Source of the DNA: Dehalococcoidia bacterium
Lineage (GTDB): Bacteria; Chloroflexota; Dehalococcoidia; Lucifugimonadales; UBA3495
NCBI GenBank assembly: GCA_009692925.1
Contig: SHYG01000002.1
Location: forward strand, 1-61,020
DNA: 61,020 bases
Direction of reading: 5' to 3'
The notes beneath the pieces are model-generated. The model worked only from the letters and a program-made list of their open reading frames with translations, ran no database searches and was not told where the DNA came from. The stretch's first letter is position 1. Every line of letters begins with the position of its first letter. The translations under genes and the position numbers were made by a program. Below, piece by piece: positions 1 to 24,488 of this stretch.

Positions 1-725
1 AGCAGGGGCACATCCTGTAAGGCGCGCTTCACTTCAAATCCGCAGGGCATCAGAATAACTGCCTCCGGCTGGCTGGCCACCACTTCCGGCCACTCCATGC
101 GAAAGGAACCAGTCTCCTTGTTGCCGAAACAGTTCACCCCGCCGGCCAGCTCCACCATCTCCGGCACCCAATGGCCGCCGCACATCAGGGGGTCTGCCCA
201 CTCCAGCACCAGCGTCCGGGGCTTCTGGGTGGCCTGGGCTGCCCGCTCCGCCACCCGGTCAATGCGCTGCTGCAACTGTGCGGCCAGTTCCTCCGCCTCC
301 GCGGCCTTGCCGGTGGCGCGGCCCAGCTTCCGCAGGTCTTCCAGCACGTCGCTCAGGTACTGAGGGTCCAGGGAAAGAACCTCCGGCTGCTTGGGAAGGG
401 CCACACTCGCCTCGGCCACCTGCCGAGTGGAGATTGCTCAAACCTCGCAGATGGCCTGGGTCAGCAGCAAGTCCGGCTCCGCCGCCTGTAGCAACTCTTG
501 GTTAATGTCGTATATTCCCAGTCCCTGTTGCAGCCGTTCGCCAATGACCTTGCTGATCTCGCCGCTGGTAGGCTGCTGGCCGTCAAACACGCTGCGCACC
601 ACTATGGGCTTGGTCCGGGCGTCGGGCGGGTAGTCGCACTCAAAAGTCACGCCATAAAGCTGGTCTTGCAGCCCCAGCGCATAGACCATCTCGGTGGCGC
701 TGGGCAAGAATGAGCAGATTCGCAT
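1..725 (-). CDS. TroA/BtuF-like (cobalamin-binding-type) substrate-binding protein, runs off window start; in-frame TGA at 440..438 (candidate selenocysteine, otherwise nonsense pseudogene)
   Basis: Starts [18 protein letters not shown] like the paralog at 52581..53504. The frame stays open for 145 codons after the TGA to the window edge. The TGA aligns with the second Cys of CEVC in the paralog. A hairpin at 411..427 lies 10 nt 3' of the TGA. Confidence 0.6.
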
Positions 726-795: not shown

Positions 796-1620
796 CTAGA
801 ACCAGTCGCCAATAATCTTCCCCAGCCCTCCGATGCTCAGCCAGTAGTAAATTACGAAGACTCCCGCCAGAACTATCAGCACCGCGCTGGCTCGCTCCAC
901 GTAGGGCATCGCCCGCCGCAGGAGCTTGCCCGCCGCGCCCTGGAAGGCCGCGGTGCCCAGGGTCAGCGCCAGCAGGGTTGCCCCCATGCCCAGGGAGTAG
1001 CTCAGGAACTGCCACAACCCGCCGATGAAGTTGTCGGCGGTCAAAGAGCTGCCCACCACTATCAGGAAGATGGGCAAGGTGCAGCTTAACGAGGCGATGC
1101 CATACGCGATGCCAAACAGGAAATACCCCAGGAACGCCTTCACCGGCGATGAAGCTCTACTATCTCCCCGGGGCGAGATTCGTGCGGAAAGCCGGCTGGC
1201 GGCGCCGAAGTAGAGGTGCCCGCGCTCCAGCAGCATCCAGGCGCCCAGTCCCAACATCAGCCCGCCGATGGTCAGCCCGGCCCAAGGCATTACTCCCACC
1301 AGGAAGCGCCCTCCGGCGCTGATGACCGCCCCGGCGACGCCAAAGAGCAGCACAAACCCCAGCGTCACCGCCAGCGACACCAGCAGCCCCTTGACCATCC
1401 GGCCCGCCAATTTGGCGGACCGTAAGCTGGCGCCTGAAGCGGCATCCCCCGTGTCGCCAAGGAACAGCGAGATGTACGCCGGCAGCAGCGCAAAGCCGCA
1501 GGGGTTCACCGTGGCCAGCATGCCGCTGCCAAAGGCATATCCCACCGGCAGCGACTCCACCACCGTGCCGCCTAGCCCCGCCACCAGGGAGAGCACCGCT
1601 TCGATAAAATGCTCCATCAT
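796..1620 (-). CDS. CcdA/DsbD-family cytochrome c biogenesis / thiol-disulfide transmembrane electron transporter
   Basis: 274-aa polytopic membrane ORF with the two signature Cys contexts ([12 protein letters not shown] and [10 protein letters not shown]). Confidence 0.8.
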
Positions 1621-7629: not shown

Positions 7630-8550
7630 ATGACTACCAAACAGCGCAAGATCGTCGGCACTGGCAAATACACCTATGAGATGCACGAGGACTGGGCCAA
7701 GCTGCCCGCAGGCTGGAAGATGCCTGCCGCCGCCGTCTTTGGGGACACTGAAGACCGAGTCTACTGCTTCAACCGCGACCCAGACCATCCAATCTGCATC
7801 TTTGACCGGGAAGGCAACTACATCTCCTCCTGGGGCAAGGGCACCTTCGCGTTCCCTCACGCCATCATCCTGGACCAACATCAGAATGTCTGGCTGGTGG
7901 AGCGAAACAACGGCCAGATCATGAAATTCACCAAGGGCGGCCGGCGGCTCATGACCATCGGCGTAAAGGGCCATCGCTCCGCAACTGGCGCCGATAACAC
8001 CGACTTCGGCTCCAACGGCTGGAAACTGGTCACCCGCGCCGGCGAACCCTTCAACCTGCCCGCGGGCATCGCCCTCAACGACGCCGGCGAGATCTTCATC
8101 GCCGACGGCTACGCCAACGCCCGGGTGCATAAGTTCTCCGCCGACGGCAAGCTCCTCATGTCCTGGGGCGGGCCCGGCAACGGCAATGGTCAGTTCAATC
8201 TGCCCCACGGATGCTGGATTGACCGCCGTGGCCGCCTGCTCATCTGCGACCGCGAGAACGACCGGGTGCAGGCCTTCAGCCAGGATGGCAAACACCTGGC
8301 CACCTGGCCCAGCAAGCTCATCGGGCCGGCGGTGATGTGCGTGGACAACGAGGACACCGTCTACGTTGCGGAGCACAATGGCGGCTTGATTAGCATCCTT
8401 GACCTGGATGGCAAGCGTCTGGCCCAGTGGGGCGGCATGGAGAAGCGCTCTTGCCACGGCATCTGGGTGGACTCCCACAAGGACCTCTACGTGGTACAGC
8501 CCTTCGAGGGTGGCCAGGGCCGCACCGTGGTCAAGTTTGTCCGCAAATAG
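7630..8550 (+). CDS. NHL-repeat six-bladed beta-propeller protein (peptidyl-alpha-hydroxyglycine lyase-like)
   Basis: Repeated FNLPxG...DxxGxxxxxDxxNxRVxxF units. ATG at 7630 follows AGGGAGGG. The ORF track start at 7558 is an upstream extension. Confidence 0.8.
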   Translation: MTTKQRKIVGTGKYTYEMHEDWAKLPAGWKMPAAAVFGDTEDRVYCFNRDPDHPICIFDREGNYISSWGKGTFAFPHAIILDQHQNVWLVERNNGQIMKFTKGGRRLMTIGVKGHRSATGADNTDFGSNGWKLVTRAGEPFNLPAGIALNDAGEIFIADGYANARVHKFSADGKLLMSWGGPGNGNGQFNLPHGCWIDRRGRLLICDRENDRVQAFSQDGKHLATWPSKLIGPAVMCVDNEDTVYVAEHNGGLISILDLDGKRLAQWGGMEKRSCHGIWVDSHKDLYVVQPFEGGQGRTVVKFVRK

Positions 8551-9078: not shown

Positions 9079-9129
9079 GCCCGCGCCGTGGAGTTTAGTC
9101 TCCCACCGTTCTCGGGCCAGTGAACTCCC

Positions 9130-10986
9130 CTACCGCGGCAAGTGGTAGGGCACCGTAACCAGAATGATGCGGTCCTGCCTTCCCAGGGCGCCCCGGAGCA
9201 GCATGGCGGTGTGGTTGTGCAGCAGGCCCTGCCACCAGTGCCGTGGCACGAACTCCGGTATCACCACCGTAACATGCTCCGAAGGATGTTCCTTCGCCAC
9301 TCCCTGAATGTAGTCCACCAGGGGCCGTACCACCTCCCGGTAGGGCGACGGAATTATCTTCAGGGGGATGTTCGTCTGCAGGCGGTCCCAACGGCGTTCC
9401 ACCACCCGGGCCGAGTCCTCGTCCACTGCCACGTGCACCGCCTGCACATTCTTGCCAATCAACTGGGCGTACTCCACCGCCGGCAACACTGCCCGATGCA
9501 CTCCCCCTACAGGAATAATCACCACCCGTTCTGGAGCGGTGACGCTGGGCACGTGGTGCTCCAAAGACAAGGTTTCCGCCAGGGTGCGGTAGTGGCGGTG
9601 GATGGCCGCCAGCACGAACAGCAGCACGGGAATTGCCGCCACCACAATCCATGCGCCGGTCCAAGTCCCCGGAGAGACGAACTTGGTCACCGTCAGCACC
9701 ACCAGCACCACTCCGGTCACGACTGTGCCAATGCCCGTCACCAGGAAACTATGCCACCAGCCTGGTCCCCGCTTGCGCCACCAGTACCGGGTCATGCCGG
9801 CCATGGTCAGCACAAATCCTATGAACACCCCAATGGCGTACAACGGAAGCAACCGGTGCACGTCGCCCTTAAAGAAGAAAATCAGCAGGCTGGCGAACCC
9901 CGCCAGCAGCAAAATGCCGTTGGAAAACACCAGCCGGTCTCCCAGGTTGGTCAGTGGACGGGGCAAGAAGCCATCCCTGGCCAGCCGCGCCGCCAGTGGC
10001 GGGAAGGCGGAAAAGCTGGTGTTGGCCGCTACCACCAGAATGAACAGAGTGCTGAACTGCGTCGCGTAGTATAGCGCGCTGTTGCCAAAGCTGATGCGCG
10101 CCGCCTGGGACACCAAAGTCTGACCCTCCTCCGGCCTGAGGTGGTAGGCGTACGCCATAAAGCTCAGCCCTAAGAAGAGGCCGGCCAGCAACAGTCCCAT
10201 GGTGAAGAGGGTAATGCGGGCATTGCGGACTTGCGGCGGCTTGAAGATGTTCAAGGTGTTAGAGATGGCTTCCACCCCGGTGATGGCTACGCAACCGGAA
10301 GAGAAGGCCCGGAGGAGCTGGAAGGCCCCCACCACCGTAGTCCCCATGATGACTACTCCGGGGGCGGGCGCTGGCAGGACGCCTTGGGTGATGTGTTTGT
10401 ACGCGGCTACCGCCAGCATCAGAAAAAAGCAGGCAAGGAACAGGTAAACCGGCAGCGCCAGGAATTTGGCCGACTGCCGGACTCCGCGCAAGTTGATCAG
10501 GGTCAGGGCGATCACCAGCAGCCCCGCCAGCAGGACTCGCAGCGGGGCAAGGCCCGGAAACAGGGCCAGCCCCGGGAAGGCGGAGGTAACCGCGGCGGCG
10601 CCCGCCGTAACCGAAACCGCCACCGTTAGGGTGTAGTCCAGCAGCAGGCTCGCCCCGGCCACAACACCGGGACCCGTTCCCAGGTTCTCCTTGGCCACTA
10701 CATAGGCGCCACCGCCATTAGGATAAGTCCGAATGACGTAGTCATAGCTCAACACCACCAGCACCATGAGGACTGTGATCGCCAGGGTGATGACCAGACT
10801 GTCGGCGTGGAGAGTCGTCCCTCCCACCGTAAGGCTCAGCAAAATCTCTTCCGAGGCGTAGGCTGAGGAGGAGAGGGCGTTGGCCGCGACGATGACGAAT
10901 GCCAGGGGAATCCCCAGCCGCTCACCCCTGGCTTGCCATGAAGCCAAAGGGTTGCCGATTAAGAAGGACCGGATGGTGTAAAACAT
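9130..10986 (-). CDS. APC-superfamily amino acid/polyamine permease with C-terminal cytoplasmic domain
   Basis: 618 aa, about 12 TM segments, N-terminal motif typical of APC permeases (LGIPLAFVIVAANALSSSAYASEE). Confidence 0.8.
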   Translation of the reverse strand: MFYTIRSFLIGNPLASWQARGERLGIPLAFVIVAANALSSSAYASEEILLSLTVGGTTLHADSLVITLAITVLMVLVVLSYDYVIRTYPNGGGAYVVAKENLGTGPGVVAGASLLLDYTLTVAVSVTAGAAAVTSAFPGLALFPGLAPLRVLLAGLLVIALTLINLRGVRQSAKFLALPVYLFLACFFLMLAVAAYKHITQGVLPAPAPGVVIMGTTVVGAFQLLRAFSSGCVAITGVEAISNTLNIFKPPQVRNARITLFTMGLLLAGLFLGLSFMAYAYHLRPEEGQTLVSQAARISFGNSALYYATQFSTLFILVVAANTSFSAFPPLAARLARDGFLPRPLTNLGDRLVFSNGILLLAGFASLLIFFFKGDVHRLLPLYAIGVFIGFVLTMAGMTRYWWRKRGPGWWHSFLVTGIGTVVTGVVLVVLTVTKFVSPGTWTGAWIVVAAIPVLLFVLAAIHRHYRTLAETLSLEHHVPSVTAPERVVIIPVGGVHRAVLPAVEYAQLIGKNVQAVHVAVDEDSARVVERRWDRLQTNIPLKIIPSPYREVVRPLVDYIQGVAKEHPSEHVTVVIPEFVPRHWWQGLLHNHTAMLLRGALGRQDRIILVTVPYHLPR

Positions 10987-18471: not shown

Positions 18472-19643
18472 CCACCGTCCTTGAACTGGTAGCGCAGATT
18501 CACTCCACGCCCCACAAGGGGGTGGTGGTGGTGGCTGGCGGCGGCGCCCAGGGTTTGGCCTGGCTGATGGAAGTGCCGGGCGCCTCCCGCACCGTCCTGG
18601 AAGCGCTTGTGCCCTACGGCCGCCGGTCAATGATCCAGTTCCTGGGAGAGGAACCGGCGCAATACGTCTCGGTCCAGACTGCCCAGGACATGGCCCGCGC
18701 CGCCTACCGGCGGGGCATGATTCTGCGGGAGGATGCCTCCCCGGTGGTGGGCCTGGCCTGCACCGCAACTATCGCCACCGACCGGCCCAAGCGGGGCGAC
18801 CACCGCTGTTGCGTCGCGGCTTGGGGCCAAGATGGGGTGGCGACCTACGACCTGGTGCTGGCCAAAGGCCGCCGCGACCGTTCCGGCGAGGAACTGGTGG
18901 TGAGCCGCCTGCTGCTGCGTGCCCTGGCGGAGGCCTGCGGCATCGCCTCCAGCCTCTCCCTGGAGTTGATTGACTCCGAGGACTTGAAAGTCCGGCATCA
19001 GGCCCACCCTAGCCCCATCCAGCGCCTGCTGTCTGGGGAGATTAGCCTGGTGTTGGCCAACCCCGACGGCAGTTTTGCGGTGGACGAGGTAATACCCCCC
19101 TTTCGCAAAGGGGGGCTAGGGGGGATTTCGGCGTTGCTCCCCGGCTCCTTCAACCCGCTGCACCACGGCCACCAGGAGCTGGCGCGAGTCGCCCAGGAAA
19201 TTCTGGGGGCAACCGTGGCCTTCGAGTTGTCCGTGGTGAACGTGGACAAGCCGCCGTTGGAAGAGGCGGAGGTGCGCCGCCGCCTGGCGCAGTTCGCCGG
19301 GCAAGCCCCGGTGGTGCTGACGCGGGCAGAGACCTTCCGAAAAAAGGCTGGCCTGCTGCCCGGCTGTGCCTTTGTCATCGGCTGGGACACCGCAGTGCGT
19401 CTGGTGGAGCCCCGGTACTACGGTGGGCACGCGGCCATGCTCACCGCCTTGGCCGAGATGTGGGCGCTGGGTTGCCGGTTCCTGGTCGCGGGCCGGGAGC
19501 ACCAGGGGCGCTTCCACACCCTGGAGGACATCGCCATCCCGCAAGGATTCCAGCCGCTGTTCCAGGCCATCCCCCAGTCCAGCTTCCGCGCCGACATCTC
19601 CTCCACCGCGCTTCGGGCCAGACAGGGTAGCCAACCAAATTGA
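18468..19643 (+). CDS. two-domain protein: CinA-C/PncC-like domain fused to an HxGH nucleotidyltransferase (NadD/NMNAT-like) domain
   Basis: ATGA overlap with the upstream stop. Contains GGGAQGLAWLMEVPGASRTVLEALVPY and GSFNPLHHGH. A palindromic element is inserted in-frame at 19091..19130 in the linker. Confidence 0.6.
   Translation: MTTVLELVAQIHSTPHKGVVVVAGGGAQGLAWLMEVPGASRTVLEALVPYGRRSMIQFLGEEPAQYVSVQTAQDMARAAYRRGMILREDASPVVGLACTATIATDRPKRGDHRCCVAAWGQDGVATYDLVLAKGRRDRSGEELVVSRLLLRALAEACGIASSLSLELIDSEDLKVRHQAHPSPIQRLLSGEISLVLANPDGSFAVDEVIPPFRKGGLGGISALLPGSFNPLHHGHQELARVAQEILGATVAFELSVVNVDKPPLEEAEVRRRLAQFAGQAPVVLTRAETFRKKAGLLPGCAFVIGWDTAVRLVEPRYYGGHAAMLTALAEMWALGCRFLVAGREHQGRFHTLEDIAIPQGFQPLFQAIPQSSFRADISSTALRARQGSQPN
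19091..19130. repeat. GC-rich palindromic element, copy D, inside a CDS and in-frame (encodes IPPFRKGGLGGIS)
   Basis: AATACCCCCCTTTCGCAAAGGGGGGCTAGGGGGGATTTCG. Confidence 0.85.
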
Positions 19644-19669
19644 CACCCAATTCGGGCCAATGTTATATT
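19640..19669 (+). promoter_or_regulatory. near-consensus sigma70 promoter for the nuo operon
   Basis: TTGACA (19640..19645), 17-18-nt spacer, TGTTATATT extended -10, about 95 nt upstream of nuoA. Confidence 0.55.
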
Positions 19670-20695: not shown

Positions 20696-21269
20696 CGCCC
20701 CCAGCTCCTCGCCGGGGGCAGGCGAGACTCCAGCGCCCCCCGCCGCGCGGGCACGCCCTCCGGCCGCTCCCCACGGGGCGACAGAGGCGGCAGGCCCAGA
20801 AAAACTCCCTCCAAAGGCCCAGGAGTTGCTGGCCCGCGCCCAGACTGTATTGGCGGACTTCCATCCCCAGCCGGGGGCCCTGGGCGACTTGCCCCAGTTG
20901 ACCGTGAACGCCGCCAGCATTGCCAAAGTGTGCCTCCGGGCGCGCAACGACCCGCGACTGGACCTGAAGATGCTTCATTGCCTGGCTGCTGTGGACTACA
21001 AAGACCACTTCCAGGTGGTGTACTTCCTCCACTCGCTGACTCAGGAGGGTACCCTGGCCATCAAGGCCGATGTGCCGGCGGCGACGCCCTCCCTGCCCTC
21101 GGTGACTTCCGTGTGGGCCGCGGCGGACTGGTACGAGCGCGAGGCTCACGACCTGTTTGGCATTGGCTTTGACGGCCACCCGAATATGTCCCCGTTGCTG
21201 CTGTACGAAGGTTTTGAGGGGTACCCTGGCCGCAAGGAGTTCCCCTTCAACGACTACCAGGAGTTCTAA
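20682..21269 (+). CDS. nuoC: NADH-quinone oxidoreductase subunit C with Pro/Ala-rich N-terminal extension
   Basis: [18 protein letters not shown]. No ATG occurs after the nuoB stop. The in-frame GTG at 20682 is proposed as the start, which is uncertain. Confidence 0.8.
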
Positions 21270-21275
21270 GCATCC

Positions 21276-21521
21276 TTGGAGCAACTGGTGCTGACCGCGC
21301 GAGTGGTGTTGGAAGAGGGCACGTACGTGGCCCGGGTGGACGGCCTTCCCCTGGAGGGGCGCGGCGACACCCTGCGTCAGGCCCAGGTCCAGTTGGTGCA
21401 GGTCATGCGGGCCTGGATCGAGGCGCAGGAGACCGCCGGACGCCTGGTGGAAGTCCTGGCTCAGGCTGGGTTTCCCGGCGCCGACGACGACACGGAGTTG
21501 CAACTGGAGTTTGCGGAGTAG
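21276..21521 (+). CDS. HicB-like (UPF0150 fold) small protein between nuoC and nuoD
   Basis: LTARVVLEEGTYVARVDGLPLEGRGDTLRQAQVQLVQVMRAWIE matches the HicB/UPF0150 pattern. Native GC-rich codons. Start is TTG, or GTG at 21288. Confidence 0.55.
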   Translation: MEQLVLTARVVLEEGTYVARVDGLPLEGRGDTLRQAQVQLVQVMRAWIEAQETAGRLVEVLAQAGFPGADDDTELQLEFAE

Positions 21522-21570: not shown

Positions 21571-22713
21571 ATGTGTCCAAACATGGTTGAAACCCACGCT
21601 AACTTGGCCGCTGGCGGTCAGCCGGTGGAGATGCTGCTCAACATGGGGCCGCAGCATCCCTCCACTCATGGCGTTTTCCGCCTGGTGCTCTGGATTGACG
21701 GCGAGAAGATCGTGCGGGCCGAGCCTCACATCGGCTACCTCCACCGCGGCTCGGAAAAGCTGTGCGAGGGGGAGCAGTACCACCAGGTCATCACCCTCTT
21801 CGACCGGCTGGACTACGTAGCCAACTTCAACAACGAGTGGGCCTACTGCCGGGCGGTGGAAAAGCTCATGGGGCTGGCGGTGCCGGAGCGGGCCGAGTAC
21901 GCGCGAGTAATCCTGGGGGAGCTGAACCGCATCGCCAGCCACCTGCTGTACGTGGGCACCATGGGGCTGGACGCCGGCGCCATGACCCCCTCCATGTTCT
22001 GCTTCCGGGGCCGGGAGCGGGTGCAAGCCCTCTTCGAGGCGGTCTCCGGCGCCCGCATGATGCACAACTACTTCCGCATCGGAGGCCTGAAGGAGGAGCT
22101 GCCGGAAAACTTCCGCCAGCTCATGTCCGGCCTGCTGCCCCTGCTCAAGAAGGATGTAGAAGAAAGCGACAAGATTCTGACCTTCAACGAGATTTTCCTG
22201 GCCCGGCTCAAAGGCGTGGGGGCCATCGGCGCTCCGGAAGCGGTGGACTTCGGCTTCACCGGCCCCTGTCTGCGGGCCTGCGGCGTGGAGTACGACTGCC
22301 GCCGGGCACAGCCCTACTCCGTCTACGACCGATTCGAGTTCGAGGTGCCGGTGGGTCTGGACGGCGACTGCTGGGATCGCCACTGGGTGCGGGTGCAGGA
22401 AATGTACCAGTCCCTGCGCATCATCGAGCAGGCCCTGGCGCAGATGCCGGAAGGCCCGGTCACATCGCCTCTGGGCCGTCGGCTCATCCGTCCGCCCAAG
22501 GGCGAGGTGTACGTGCGGGCGGAGAATCCCCGGGGCGAACTGGGCGTCTACCTGGTTAGCGACGGCACCGACAAGCCCTACAGGGTCAAGGTCCGCCCGC
22601 CATCCTTCTGCAACCTATCCGCCATCCAGCGCCTGCTGCAGAACTCCTGGATCGCCGACTCGGTGGTCATCCTGGGCTCCCTGGACATCGTCTTAGGGGA
22701 GGTGGACCGCTGA
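21571..22713 (+). CDS. nuoD: NADH-quinone oxidoreductase subunit D
   Basis: MGPQHPSTHGVFRL and C-terminal SLDIVLGEVDR. Confidence 0.95.
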   Translation: MCPNMVETHANLAAGGQPVEMLLNMGPQHPSTHGVFRLVLWIDGEKIVRAEPHIGYLHRGSEKLCEGEQYHQVITLFDRLDYVANFNNEWAYCRAVEKLMGLAVPERAEYARVILGELNRIASHLLYVGTMGLDAGAMTPSMFCFRGRERVQALFEAVSGARMMHNYFRIGGLKEELPENFRQLMSGLLPLLKKDVEESDKILTFNEIFLARLKGVGAIGAPEAVDFGFTGPCLRACGVEYDCRRAQPYSVYDRFEFEVPVGLDGDCWDRHWVRVQEMYQSLRIIEQALAQMPEGPVTSPLGRRLIRPPKGEVYVRAENPRGELGVYLVSDGTDKPYRVKVRPPSFCNLSAIQRLLQNSWIADSVVILGSLDIVLGEVDR

Positions 22714-22762
22714 TGGGCGCACCAGTGGCCTTCAAAGAGTGGCCCCCCAAAGGACGGTTTAT

Positions 22763-22993
22763 ATGGAATATGTGAAGATCAAGTTACTAGACCCCGAGGA
22801 TGAAGCTAAGGCCTTCTTCCACCTTGTCCAACTGAGTAAGGTTGTATCGTTGAATGAAGGTGGAGTAGAGGTCTTCATCGTCCCCGGAAAAAGTCTCGCT
22901 GTCCTTGACCAGAAGGAGCTAGCCTTTCAGGTGCTGGGAGAAATGGGGTACGATGGCGTCCTTCAGGCGTTACGAAGTTCTCTTACCCCTTAG
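22763..22993 (+). CDS. hypothetical small acidic protein (76 aa), low-GC insert in the nuo operon
   Basis: ATG at 22763 after AAAGGA. About 49 percent GC by hand count, against clearly GC-richer neighbours. No family recognised. Confidence 0.5.
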   Translation: MEYVKIKLLDPEDEAKAFFHLVQLSKVVSLNEGGVEVFIVPGKSLAVLDQKELAFQVLGEMGYDGVLQALRSSLTP

Positions 22994-23273
22994 TTACAAC
23001 GACGGCTCTCCAGTCGAGCGAGAGAACATTATCCAGACTCGGCGTGAGCTTTTGGTTCGATTCGGAGCATTAACCTCCTATCTCGACCCTCTGATGGGTT
23101 ACTGGACAGCACCAACTGGCGCGGTGGTTGAAGATCGGTTAGTACGGCTGGTTGTCGATGTGCCAGACACCACCGAAAATCGGGAGTTCTTCGTCCAGCG
23201 GAAAGAGGTATTGAAGGAGCGATTCCAGCTGCTGGAAGTTTGGATTACAGGCATCCCTCTGGATATAATCTGA
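22953..23273 (+). CDS. hypothetical protein (106 aa), low-GC insert in the nuo operon, overlaps the upstream ORF by 41 nt
   Basis: MASFRRYEVLLPLSYNDGSPVE...REFFVQRKEVLKERFQLLEVWIT. No family recognised. Confidence 0.5.
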   Translation: MASFRRYEVLLPLSYNDGSPVERENIIQTRRELLVRFGALTSYLDPLMGYWTAPTGAVVEDRLVRLVVDVPDTTENREFFVQRKEVLKERFQLLEVWITGIPLDII

Positions 23274-23297
23274 AAACGGGGTCACAGTGGTAGACAA

Positions 23298-24455
23298 TTG
23301 GAAATCATAGACATCCTCACAATTATCGTGAAGCTGGCAGTGCTTTTCACCATCCTCAGCGTGGTGGTGCTGGGCCTGACCTGGCTGGAGCGCAAGGTGC
23401 TGGGACGCCTGCAGGGGCGCTTGGGACCAACTCGCACCGGCCCGATGGGTCTGCTTCAGCCCCTGGCCGACGCCCTGAAGCTGGTGCTCAAGGAAGACAT
23501 TATCCCCACCGCCGCGGAGAAGGTGCTGTTCTGGATTGCGCCGGTCATTGTAGTTATTTCGGCCTTTGTCATTTGGGTCACTATTCCCGCTTCCCAGAGT
23601 CTCGTAGTTCAGAACCTGGACCTCGGACTCTTCTACATCATCGCCTTCTCGGTGGTGGGGATTCTGGGCTTGCTGATGGCCGGCTGGGGCTCGGCCAACA
23701 AGTACGGCGCGCTGGGCGGCCTGCGGGCGGCGGCCCAGCTTATCAGTTACGAGATTCCCCTCATCATGGTGGTGGTGGCGATGGCAATGCTGGCCCAGTC
23801 CCTGGACCTGCGAGTCATCGTTGAGAAGCAAAGCAGCTACCCCTACCTGCTGCTGCAGCCCCTGGGTTTGGTCATCTTCTTCATCGCCGGCCTGGCGGAG
23901 GTTGGCCGCACGCCCTTCGACATCTACCACGCCGAGTCGGAGGTAGTGGGTGGCCCCTTTGTGGAGTACAGCGGCGCCCATTGGGCTGTGTTTTTCCTGG
24001 CGGAGTACATCAACACCTTCGCCGTGGCGGCGCTCACGGCCCTGCTCTTCCTGGGAGGATGGTCCGGTCCTTTCCTGCCGCCGGTGGTCTGGTTGCTGCT
24101 CAAAACCCTGGCGGTGGTGCTGGTCATCTTCTGGGTGCGCGGCACCTTCCCCCGGCTGCGCATTGACCAGCTTATGGCCTTTGCCTGGAAGGCCCTGGTG
24201 CCGCTGTCCTTTTATGTTATTGTCATCACCGCGGTGTACCAGTTCTATGGCTGGCCTGCCTGGAGCCTCACTCTCATGTCCCTGGCGGGACTGGCGGGCG
24301 TGGGTTATCTGGTGTACCAGCGCATGACCGCCCCGGCCCGCCAGGTGAAGCAGGTGCAGGCGCGGCAACGGGCACTGGCCCAATCTCGCCGCGCGGCTGC
24401 CGCGGGCGGGACTCCCCCGGCGCCGCAGCCGGTTGCGACCCAAGGGCCAGGCTGA
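23298..24455 (+). CDS. nuoH: NADH-quinone oxidoreductase subunit H
   Basis: ERKVLGRLQGRLGPTRTGPMGLLQPLADALKL. TTG start. Confidence 0.95.
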   Translation: MEIIDILTIIVKLAVLFTILSVVVLGLTWLERKVLGRLQGRLGPTRTGPMGLLQPLADALKLVLKEDIIPTAAEKVLFWIAPVIVVISAFVIWVTIPASQSLVVQNLDLGLFYIIAFSVVGILGLLMAGWGSANKYGALGGLRAAAQLISYEIPLIMVVVAMAMLAQSLDLRVIVEKQSSYPYLLLQPLGLVIFFIAGLAEVGRTPFDIYHAESEVVGGPFVEYSGAHWAVFFLAEYINTFAVAALTALLFLGGWSGPFLPPVVWLLLKTLAVVLVIFWVRGTFPRLRIDQLMAFAWKALVPLSFYVIVITAVYQFYGWPAWSLTLMSLAGLAGVGYLVYQRMTAPARQVKQVQARQRALAQSRRAAAAGGTPPAPQPVATQGPG

Positions 24456-24488
24456 GGCCTTGCGCCCTCCCACCGTTGAGGTTAACCC

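Follow-up and report, generated by a model that had tools for sequence, protein, structure and literature searches.

Gene pair between nuoD and nuoH

The window is a stretch of 61,020 nucleotides (nt) from contig SHYG01000002.1 of a Dehalococcoidia bacterium (assembly GCA_009692925.1). In its complex I (nuo) operon, nuoD and nuoH are separated by a gap of 584 nt (22714..23297), which is filled by two small overlapping open reading frames (ORFs), termed A and B. The origin and the possible function of this gene pair are described here. The features of the region, all on the plus strand, are as follows.

21571..22713, plus strand: upstream flank, nuoD, for the 49-kDa subunit of complex I, from the ORF list; TGA stop at 22711..22713
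22713..22775, plus strand: mini-ORF of 20 codons (MGAPVAFKEWPPKGRFIWNM followed by a stop); its ATG overlaps the nuoD stop (TGATG), and it ends 10 nt inside A
22750..22754, plus strand: Shine-Dalgarno (SD)-like AAGGA, 8 nt before the ATG of A, as read from the sequence
22763..22993, plus strand: gene A, ATG start, 76 amino acids, acidic
22936..22948, plus strand: purine-rich stretch GGGAGAAATGGGG within A, by its sequence the likely ribosome-binding site for B
22953..23273, plus strand: gene B, 106 amino acids, in the +1 frame relative to A
22953..22993, plus strand: A/B overlap of 41 nt, coding for the conserved A-L-R of A and the conserved R-Y-E of B
23223..23237, plus strand: palindrome TTCCAGCTGCTGGAA in B, with a perfect 6-bp stem; the sole terminator-like match, with a poor T tail
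23298..24455, plus strand: nuoH, the downstream flank, TTG start 24 nt past the B stop

The ATG at 22763 is preferred as the start of A over an alternative GTG at 22739, which gives a protein of 84 amino acids, because of the AAGGA upstream of it. The equivalent methionine is also the start of A homologues. The isoelectric points of A and B are 4.75 and 4.97 respectively. The nuoD orthologues of two loci (L001 and L005) match the Complex1_49kDa family of Pfam. No sigma-70-like promoter is detected on the plus strand in or beside the gap, and the only strong one is located before nuoA (19640..19669). A scan of the region against Rfam gives no family, but just a sub-threshold match on the plus strand, and a search for repeats, inverted or direct, at the ends of the cassette gives nothing convincing. 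Two antisense ORFs (23099..23254 and 23139..24473) are present in the region, and they look like the spurious ones that are common in the high-G+C flank. A preliminary description of this DNA had given the coordinates and sizes of the two ORFs, the length of their overlap and of the gap, and the acidic character of A, and all of these are reproduced. It had also assigned neither a promoter nor a terminator to the pair, in agreement with the empty promoter scan and with a terminator-like match that is a short palindrome inside B.

Conservation of the pair and of its overlap

Homologues of B are found in 91 loci, 11 of them by look-up of exact proteins and 80 by a scan of species-representative genomes. 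When these loci are examined for co-occurrence of the two genes, an A homologue is located directly upstream of B on the same strand in 85, always in the order A then B. When they are examined for conservation of the frames, the +1 frame and an overlap of 38-56 nt are kept in 82 of the 83 pairs with definable starts. An SD-like motif is present inside A before the start of B in 59 of these 83 pairs. In most loci, B is provided with a start codon and an SD-like site of its own, suggesting that it is translated by separate initiation and not by frameshifting. Programmed frameshifting and an A-B fusion are rejected, since B has its own start and the longer B homologues are not fusions with A. The N-terminal extensions of these longer homologues are unrelated to A, and some of them are membrane anchors.

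The distance matrices of A and B, calculated from the non-overlapping parts, correlate with r = 0.89, and a correlation as high as this is given by none of 999 permutations. This result indicates that the pair is inherited as a unit, without swapping of partners. The invariant Arg71 (CGA) of A appears to be forced by the codons for Tyr/Phe7-Glu8 of B, and therefore it is not an independent sign of function in the tail of A. Six of the 91 loci do not contain A, and in three of these the B gene has lost the near-invariant W51 or F37.

Searches with single sequences give 10 clusters for B besides that of the window, and eight for A. By exhaustive profile search, the B family consists of 1,816 representatives of clusters at 50% identity, and by profile search the A family consists of at least 2,240 clusters at 90% identity. 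The named homologues are all annotated as "hypothetical protein", and precomputed Pfam domains are absent throughout. A and B of the window match nothing in Pfam, NCBIfam, PADLOC and PHROGs. The preliminary description had recognised neither protein as a member of a named family. This statement holds for the library scans of the window proteins, which are empty, but it requires a supplement for B, which shows a PII-like fold and a remote signal of S-adenosylmethionine (SAM) lyases and of DUF3574, as described below. Among close relatives that carry the pair in the nuo context, the ratio of nonsynonymous to synonymous substitution rates (dN/dS) is 0.04-0.13 for A and 0.09-0.29 for B, both calculated from the non-overlapping parts, and 0.08-0.16 for nuoD and nuoH. 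A and B are real genes under purifying selection.

Insertion into the nuoD-nuoH junction

A scan of metagenomes with nuoD gives 80 relatives, the nuoD genes of which are 69-88% identical to that of the window. In more than 60 of them the nuoD stop is at most a few bases away from the beginning of nuoH, and A and B are present in none of these. Of cassette-free relatives 16 junctions were read, and in every one of them the stop of nuoD and the start of nuoH overlap, in the form of TAATG, TAGTG, TGATG or a 4-nt overlap (ATGA or GTGA). The closest relative by nuoD, L092 (88% identical), does not contain the pair, and in the cassette-free relatives that were compared (L092-L144) TAATG or TGATG is followed by nuoH. 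In the window, TGATGGGC is kept at the nuoD stop and opens the 20-codon ORF that runs into A. This mini-ORF (22713..22775) is probably the vestige of the ancestral nuoH start, and it may have a role in coupling. The adjacent nuoD and nuoH genes of the cassette-free relatives, together with the vestigial nuoH start, indicate that the pair is an insertion and not a subunit of complex I. The preliminary description had taken the gap for the usual site of nuoEFG. This assignment is not correct, because nuoD abuts nuoH in the relatives, indicating that nuoEFG was never at this site in this clade.

TTG is the nuoH start codon of the window and of every module-bearing relative but L172, whereas nuoH starts with ATG or GTG in cassette-free relatives. 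In L006, ATGGGCAT is located after the nuoD stop (511..531) and TTGGGCAT at the nuoH start (1086..1105). These two sequences could be an 8-bp target-site duplication, which is weak and was recognised by eye. The upstream copy of this repeat has drifted in the window (22711..22730, as compared with 23279..23305), L001 and L005. In L173, the ATG of A itself overlaps the nuoD stop (TAATG, 1051..1055), so that A occupies the coupling site that is used by nuoH in cassette-free relatives.

The module-bearing lineages (the window, L001-L006, L172, L173 and L016) are scattered among cassette-free ones in the nuoD tree, and the nuo-embedded cassettes form one clade in the A+B tree. These trees fit either a single old insertion with repeated, precise losses afterwards, or a spread within Dehalococcoidia by recombination through the conserved nuo flanks. 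The insertion is not recent, since the single clade of nuo-embedded copies has diverged together with several lineages of Dehalococcoidia. The cassette of L016 is decaying: A is cut to 63 amino acids, and B does not have an ATG and contains an 11-residue deletion.

Base composition

The G+C contents of A (0.496) and B (0.519) are lower than those of nuoD (0.650) and nuoH (0.633). The G+C content is 0.50-0.55 across the gap and 0.62-0.70 on either side of it, and at the third codon position it is 0.55-0.58 for the cassette and 0.82-0.88 for the flanking genes. The value for A matches that of about 49 percent in the preliminary description, which had also noted that it lies below that of the GC-rich nuo flanks. 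In 71 of 75 loci the G+C content of the cassette is lower than that of its flanks (median offset -0.055), and it follows that of the host over a range of 0.31-0.63. Recent acquisition as the sole explanation of the low G+C content is rejected, because the offset is found throughout the family and the copies within nuo operons are old. The earlier proposal that the pair was horizontally acquired is retained in so far as the pair is foreign to the nuo operon, as indicated by the insert-free relatives, but the acquisition is not recent.

Distribution and neighbourhoods

The pair is present in at least eight phyla (Planctomycetota, Verrucomicrobiota, Nitrospirota, Acidobacteriota, Elusimicrobia, Armatimonadota, Bacteroidota and Chloroflexota), usually as a single copy per genome. 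When the neighbourhoods of the homologues are examined, unrelated housekeeping genes are found in other phyla. The 117 nearest flanking ORFs are assigned to 110 different Pfam families, which are mostly housekeeping and include APS kinase, DAHP synthase, TrpA, OmpH and DUF1501. A conserved third gene is not found among the flanks of the cassette loci. Many copies are located 32-100 nt behind a gene on the same strand, as in the window. The pair is an autonomous, mobile cassette; its autonomy is indicated by its unrelated housekeeping neighbours.

In IMG/VR, one B homologue is detected in 2.9 million viral contigs. This homologue (4986..5297 of L176, IMG/VR UViG_3300019360_000008) is a B alone, without A, and its signature is intact. 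The genes that adjoin it code for a phage Holliday-junction resolvase (phrog_190) and for a protein with an HD domain. The homologue weakly matches phrog_3543, a family of unknown function (E 1.3e-5).

Structure of B and its resemblance to SAM lyases

The model of B, with a predicted local distance difference test (pLDDT) score of 92, has the order beta-alpha-beta-beta-alpha-beta and a short beta2-beta3 hairpin, and B is thus predicted to have a PII-like ferredoxin fold. When this model is compared with 350,542 chains of solved structures by Foldseek, the best match is the phage SAM lyase Svi3-3 (6zm9), with E 1.5e-4, a template modelling (TM) score of 0.64 and 19% identity. The next matches are many CutA1 chains, PII proteins and a CRISPR-associated SAM-AMP lyase. 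In a library of viral structures, B is matched best by podophage proteins that are uncharacterised and about 100 amino acids long, with TM scores of up to 0.71. A profile search of B against the sequences of all solved structures gives nothing meaningful.

The near-invariant residues of the B family are P12, N16, F37, G49-x-W51, K84 and Q93, and the highly conserved ones are E8, D17, D61 and D69. When the sequence of Svi3-3, taken from the supplement of PMC7877911, is aligned to the B profile by hhalign, G49-x-W51 faces G56-V-Y58, D61 faces E69, D69 faces D78 and F91-x-Q93 faces F102-K-Q104. G56, Y58, E69 and Q104 are conserved and bind the ligand in SAM lyases (PMC7877911), and the B columns facing them are conserved in 83, 77, 75 and 83 of 85 sequences respectively. 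The scores of hhalign of E. coli GlnB and CutA to B are within the range of shuffled sequences. The only Pfam families that recur as sub-threshold matches among the 85 B homologues are DUF3574 (12 homologues) and S-AdoMet_lyase, PF23780 (three homologues); the best match to PF23780 has E 0.013 and 15.9 bits, as compared with a cutoff of 28. Three distant B homologues (P0062, P0064 and P0043), which give the clearest sub-threshold matches to both families, have an N-terminal membrane anchor or signal-like segment, suggesting a membrane-tethered or exported branch of the B superfamily.

Structure of A

The model of A (pLDDT 84) consists of a ferredoxin-like beta-alpha-beta-beta-alpha-beta domain and a C-terminal helix. 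Comparison of this model with solved structures gives no significant match, the best one being the C-terminal domain of UreE (E 0.008). The possibility that A is a degenerate copy of B, as in VapW/VapD, is rejected, since hhalign of A against B finds nothing.

Comparison with known systems

B resembles phage SAM lyases (Svi3-3, T3 SAMase; PF23780) in its PII-like fold, in its size (about 100-150 amino acids) and in a motif that precedes the last strand, F-[KR]-Q-x-[SDE]-[VI]. SAM lyases are homotrimers that split SAM into methylthioadenosine and homoserine lactone. B differs from the phage enzymes in that it is chromosomal in diverse bacteria and is paired with A, whereas they have no such partner. 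The SAM-AMP lyase of CorA-associated type III CRISPR systems (PDB 9gad), which is among the top 30 structure matches of B, also has a PII-like lyase fold, and it has in common with B the acidic residue of beta3 and the Gln of the alpha2-beta4 loop, which SAM lyases and SAM-AMP lyases both conserve (PMC12255297). However, the AMP (adenosine monophosphate)-binding residues W64, F84 and Y122 of the SAM-AMP lyase have no evident counterpart in B, and neither CRISPR nor CorA is found in the context of any cassette locus. Dozens of PII and CutA1 chains share the fold of B with TM scores of 0.55-0.65, and a trimer with ligand sites between the subunits would be expected for B by analogy with them. 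They have a long T-loop, whereas the beta2-beta3 loop of B is short and lyase-like, and the PII signature motifs are unlike the conserved residues of B. DUF3574 (PF12098) is the most frequent sub-threshold match of the B homologues, covers nearly the whole profile of 103 positions and gives a best E of 0.002. The scores of these homologues are 14-15 bits, as compared with a gathering threshold of 25, and the family has no known function, so that the match does not indicate a mechanism. The DUF3574 proteins are often anchored to the membrane at the N-terminus, like some distant B homologues.

The pair also resembles the toxin-antitoxin (TA) modules of type II represented by VapX/VapD, in which two small, co-oriented genes overlap, the smaller gene is located first and the downstream product is ferredoxin-like. 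Like these systems, the pair is autonomous and patchily distributed, its G+C content is lower than that of the host, and its partner-less copies decay in a similar manner. However, B matches neither VapD nor Cas2 in sequence or among the top-ranking structures, and A does not share the SH3 fold of VapX/VapY (compare PMC11980593). The overlap is usually 1-11 nt in type II TA systems, as compared with 38-56 nt in A-B. A DNA-binding domain and autoregulation of its own promoter would be expected of a type II antitoxin, whereas A does not have such a domain and the pair in the window does not have its own promoter.

Possible function of the pair

These results are consistent with the following mechanism. 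The laterally spread two-gene cassette, inserted exactly at the translationally coupled junction of nuoD and nuoH, would have entered it in an ancestor that several Dehalococcoidia lineages share, and would now be transcribed with the complex I operon as its passenger. B would be a small enzyme-like protein, probably a trimer, with clefts between its subunits in which SAM or a related adenosyl metabolite is bound and possibly cleaved, and its uncontrolled activity would be harmful. A would bind and neutralise B. The ribosome-binding site of B is located inside A, so that B would be produced only when A is translated, probably in smaller amounts. The pair would thus act as a TA (enzyme-inhibitor) addiction or stress module. 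The reading preferred here, although it is a tentative one, is that of a SAM-lyase-like enzyme or toxin, B, with A as its neutraliser, and its single parts, namely the homology of B to SAM lyases, the trimer, the activity towards SAM, the toxicity and the neutralisation by A, are all presumptive. By analogy, the order of a small partner first and an enzyme-like protein second, the strict coupling, the ability of the cassette to move by itself and the lack of functional neighbours resemble a TA or enzyme-inhibitor architecture. The preliminary description had compared the pair with two-component addiction or defence modules, a candidate reading that agrees with this architecture. A toxic activity of B is plausible because of its resemblance to SAM lyases and because Svi3-3 is "highly toxic" when expressed in E. 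coli (PMC7877911). The damaged B genes in loci without A and the B-only viral copy fit a TA-like decay.

Several results weigh against this reading. The alignment of B with Svi3-3 is weak (E 0.044, probability 1.2%), and 8 of 300 shuffled sequences score as well. The TM score of B to the SAM lyase is moderate, and two residues of the signature are substituted in B (Tyr to Trp and Glu to Asp). B of the window gives no match to PF23780 at E <= 1 and none to DUF3574. Moreover, it reads F-Q-L-L-E where the family reads F-x-Q-x-E, with Q92 and L93 in place of the Q93 that is present in 83 of 85 family members. By its appearance, one codon was lost here and the adjacent CTG was duplicated. This change is the sole departure of this B from the near-invariant residues, and the palindrome TTCCAGCTGCTGGAA coincides with it. 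The anchored distant B homologues hint at non-cytoplasmic roles in part of the superfamily. Models of known TA and defence systems do not match A or B, and A has neither a DNA-binding domain of the ribbon-helix-helix, helix-turn-helix or AbrB type nor a fold that is recognisable as that of an antitoxin. Genes for mobile elements, TA systems or defence are not enriched among the 117 flanking ORFs, and tblastn of B against plasmids and GenBank phages gives no match. In addition, A and B are both acidic, and an intact-looking B without A is present in three loci (L038, L039 and L071), so that B may not be lethal alone.

Some of these results favour a different function, in which the pair is a non-addictive accessory module that is beneficial under some conditions, for example in signalling or in the salvage of metabolites, with B as a PII-like sensor or mild metabolic enzyme and A as its partner or target. 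Such a module would spread and persist by its usefulness and not through a lethal effect of its loss. The acidity of both proteins, the absence of a DNA-binding domain from A and the intact B genes without A are all accounted for by such a module, as are the usual single copy among housekeeping genes without a link to plasmids or defence islands and the long retention in the nuo operon under purifying selection. The fold of B also matches the PII-like superfamily, which consists mostly of sensors that bind nucleotides between subunits (PMC7877911). Nevertheless, this function is rather unlikely, considering that the pair is patchily distributed over at least eight phyla without a conserved functional neighbour and that its G+C content is systematically lower than that of the host, as is typical of mobile accessory genes. 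The conserved polar residues of B, furthermore, look catalytic and coincide with the SAM-lyase signature, and the strict long overlap suggests a stoichiometric control, which a toxic product would need more than a mild one. Alternatively, the pair may act in conflict with phages: B would deplete SAM or a SAM-derived signal, by which it would cause abortive infection or starve phage methyltransferases, or it would disable SAM-dependent restriction or bacteriophage exclusion (BREX) of the host, and A would restrain B until a trigger arrives. Phage SAM lyases are reported to counter restriction-modification and BREX (PMC7877911; bioRxiv 10.1101/2023.02.27.530186), and SAM-AMP lyases act in type III CRISPR signalling (PMC12255297). 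The podophage proteins that are the best viral structure matches of B (TM about 0.7) and the viral contig that carries B alone and matches phrog_3543 point in the same direction. A role in phage conflict is improbable, however, since PADLOC gives no match, the flanks are not enriched for defence or mobile-element genes, and B is matched once in 2.9 million viral contigs and nowhere in the GenBank phage set. It is also a sub-case of the preferred enzyme-inhibitor reading, from which it is not separated by sequence alone.

The position of the cassette between nuoD and nuoH, its co-transcription with them, and the maintenance of the nuo-embedded clade under purifying selection in several Dehalococcoidia lineages raise the possibility that A and B are lineage-specific accessory subunits of an 11-subunit complex I, through which an alternative electron donor would bind at the position that NuoEFG take in the 14-subunit enzymes. 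Cyanobacterial NDH-1 is known to contain small subunits that have no cofactor. This possibility is very remote and is largely rejected, because the pair is absent from L092 and from more than 60 other relatives, and the L016 copy is decaying. In addition, the same pair is present in unrelated contexts of phyla with a standard complex I, and A and B contain neither Cys nor cofactor motifs and are not similar to NuoE, NuoF or NuoG.

Other small genes in the nuo operon

An ORF of 81 amino acids is located between nuoC and nuoD of the window (21276..21521, plus strand). It has the native G+C content (0.68) and a dN/dS of 0.12-0.23, and it is found with 40-65% identity in nearly all relatives with a nuoD that is at least 74% identical and a contig that reaches upstream. 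It is absent from more distant relatives, and it weakly matches UPF0150 (HicB-like) of Pfam (E 0.03). Unlike A and B, it behaves as a resident gene of the nuo operon that is specific to the clade, and it could be a real accessory subunit. L001 contains a gene for 254 amino acids between nuoH and nuoI (7696..8460), and a pair of genes, one for 71 amino acids and one for a PaREP1-domain protein of 125-137 amino acids, between nuoI and nuoJ (9105..9730). All of these are also present in L002-L004 and not in the window. The nuo operon seems to gather small passenger cassettes. At the nuoB/nuoC boundary of the window (20700..20900), the G+C content is 0.71-0.74, and nuoC has a Pro/Ala-rich N-terminal extension of low complexity.

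Significance

The literature search found no paper on a TA system of the SAM-lyase type. It is conceivable, though unlikely, that A-B is the first chromosomal TA-type module with a SAM-lyase toxin, borrowed from or lent to phages and provided with a new small inhibitor, and that it persists without a promoter between coupled essential genes, perhaps moved from genome to genome by homologous recombination through their conserved flanks. If so, destruction of the universal methyl donor would be a new toxin chemistry for TA biology, A would be a new protein inhibitor of SAM lyases, and a phage anti-restriction enzyme family would be tied to numerous bacterial proteins that are annotated as hypothetical (about 1,800 B clusters at 50% identity and at least 2,240 A clusters at 90% identity, in at least eight phyla). 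The results also call for caution in annotation, in that small genes between nuo genes are not necessarily those for complex I subunits. Whatever its function, the pair is a large, unnamed and conserved one with an unusual residence inside essential operons, and its presence between nuoD and nuoH indicates that a promoter-less cassette can split a coupled complex I junction and stay under selection while the lineages that carry it diverge.

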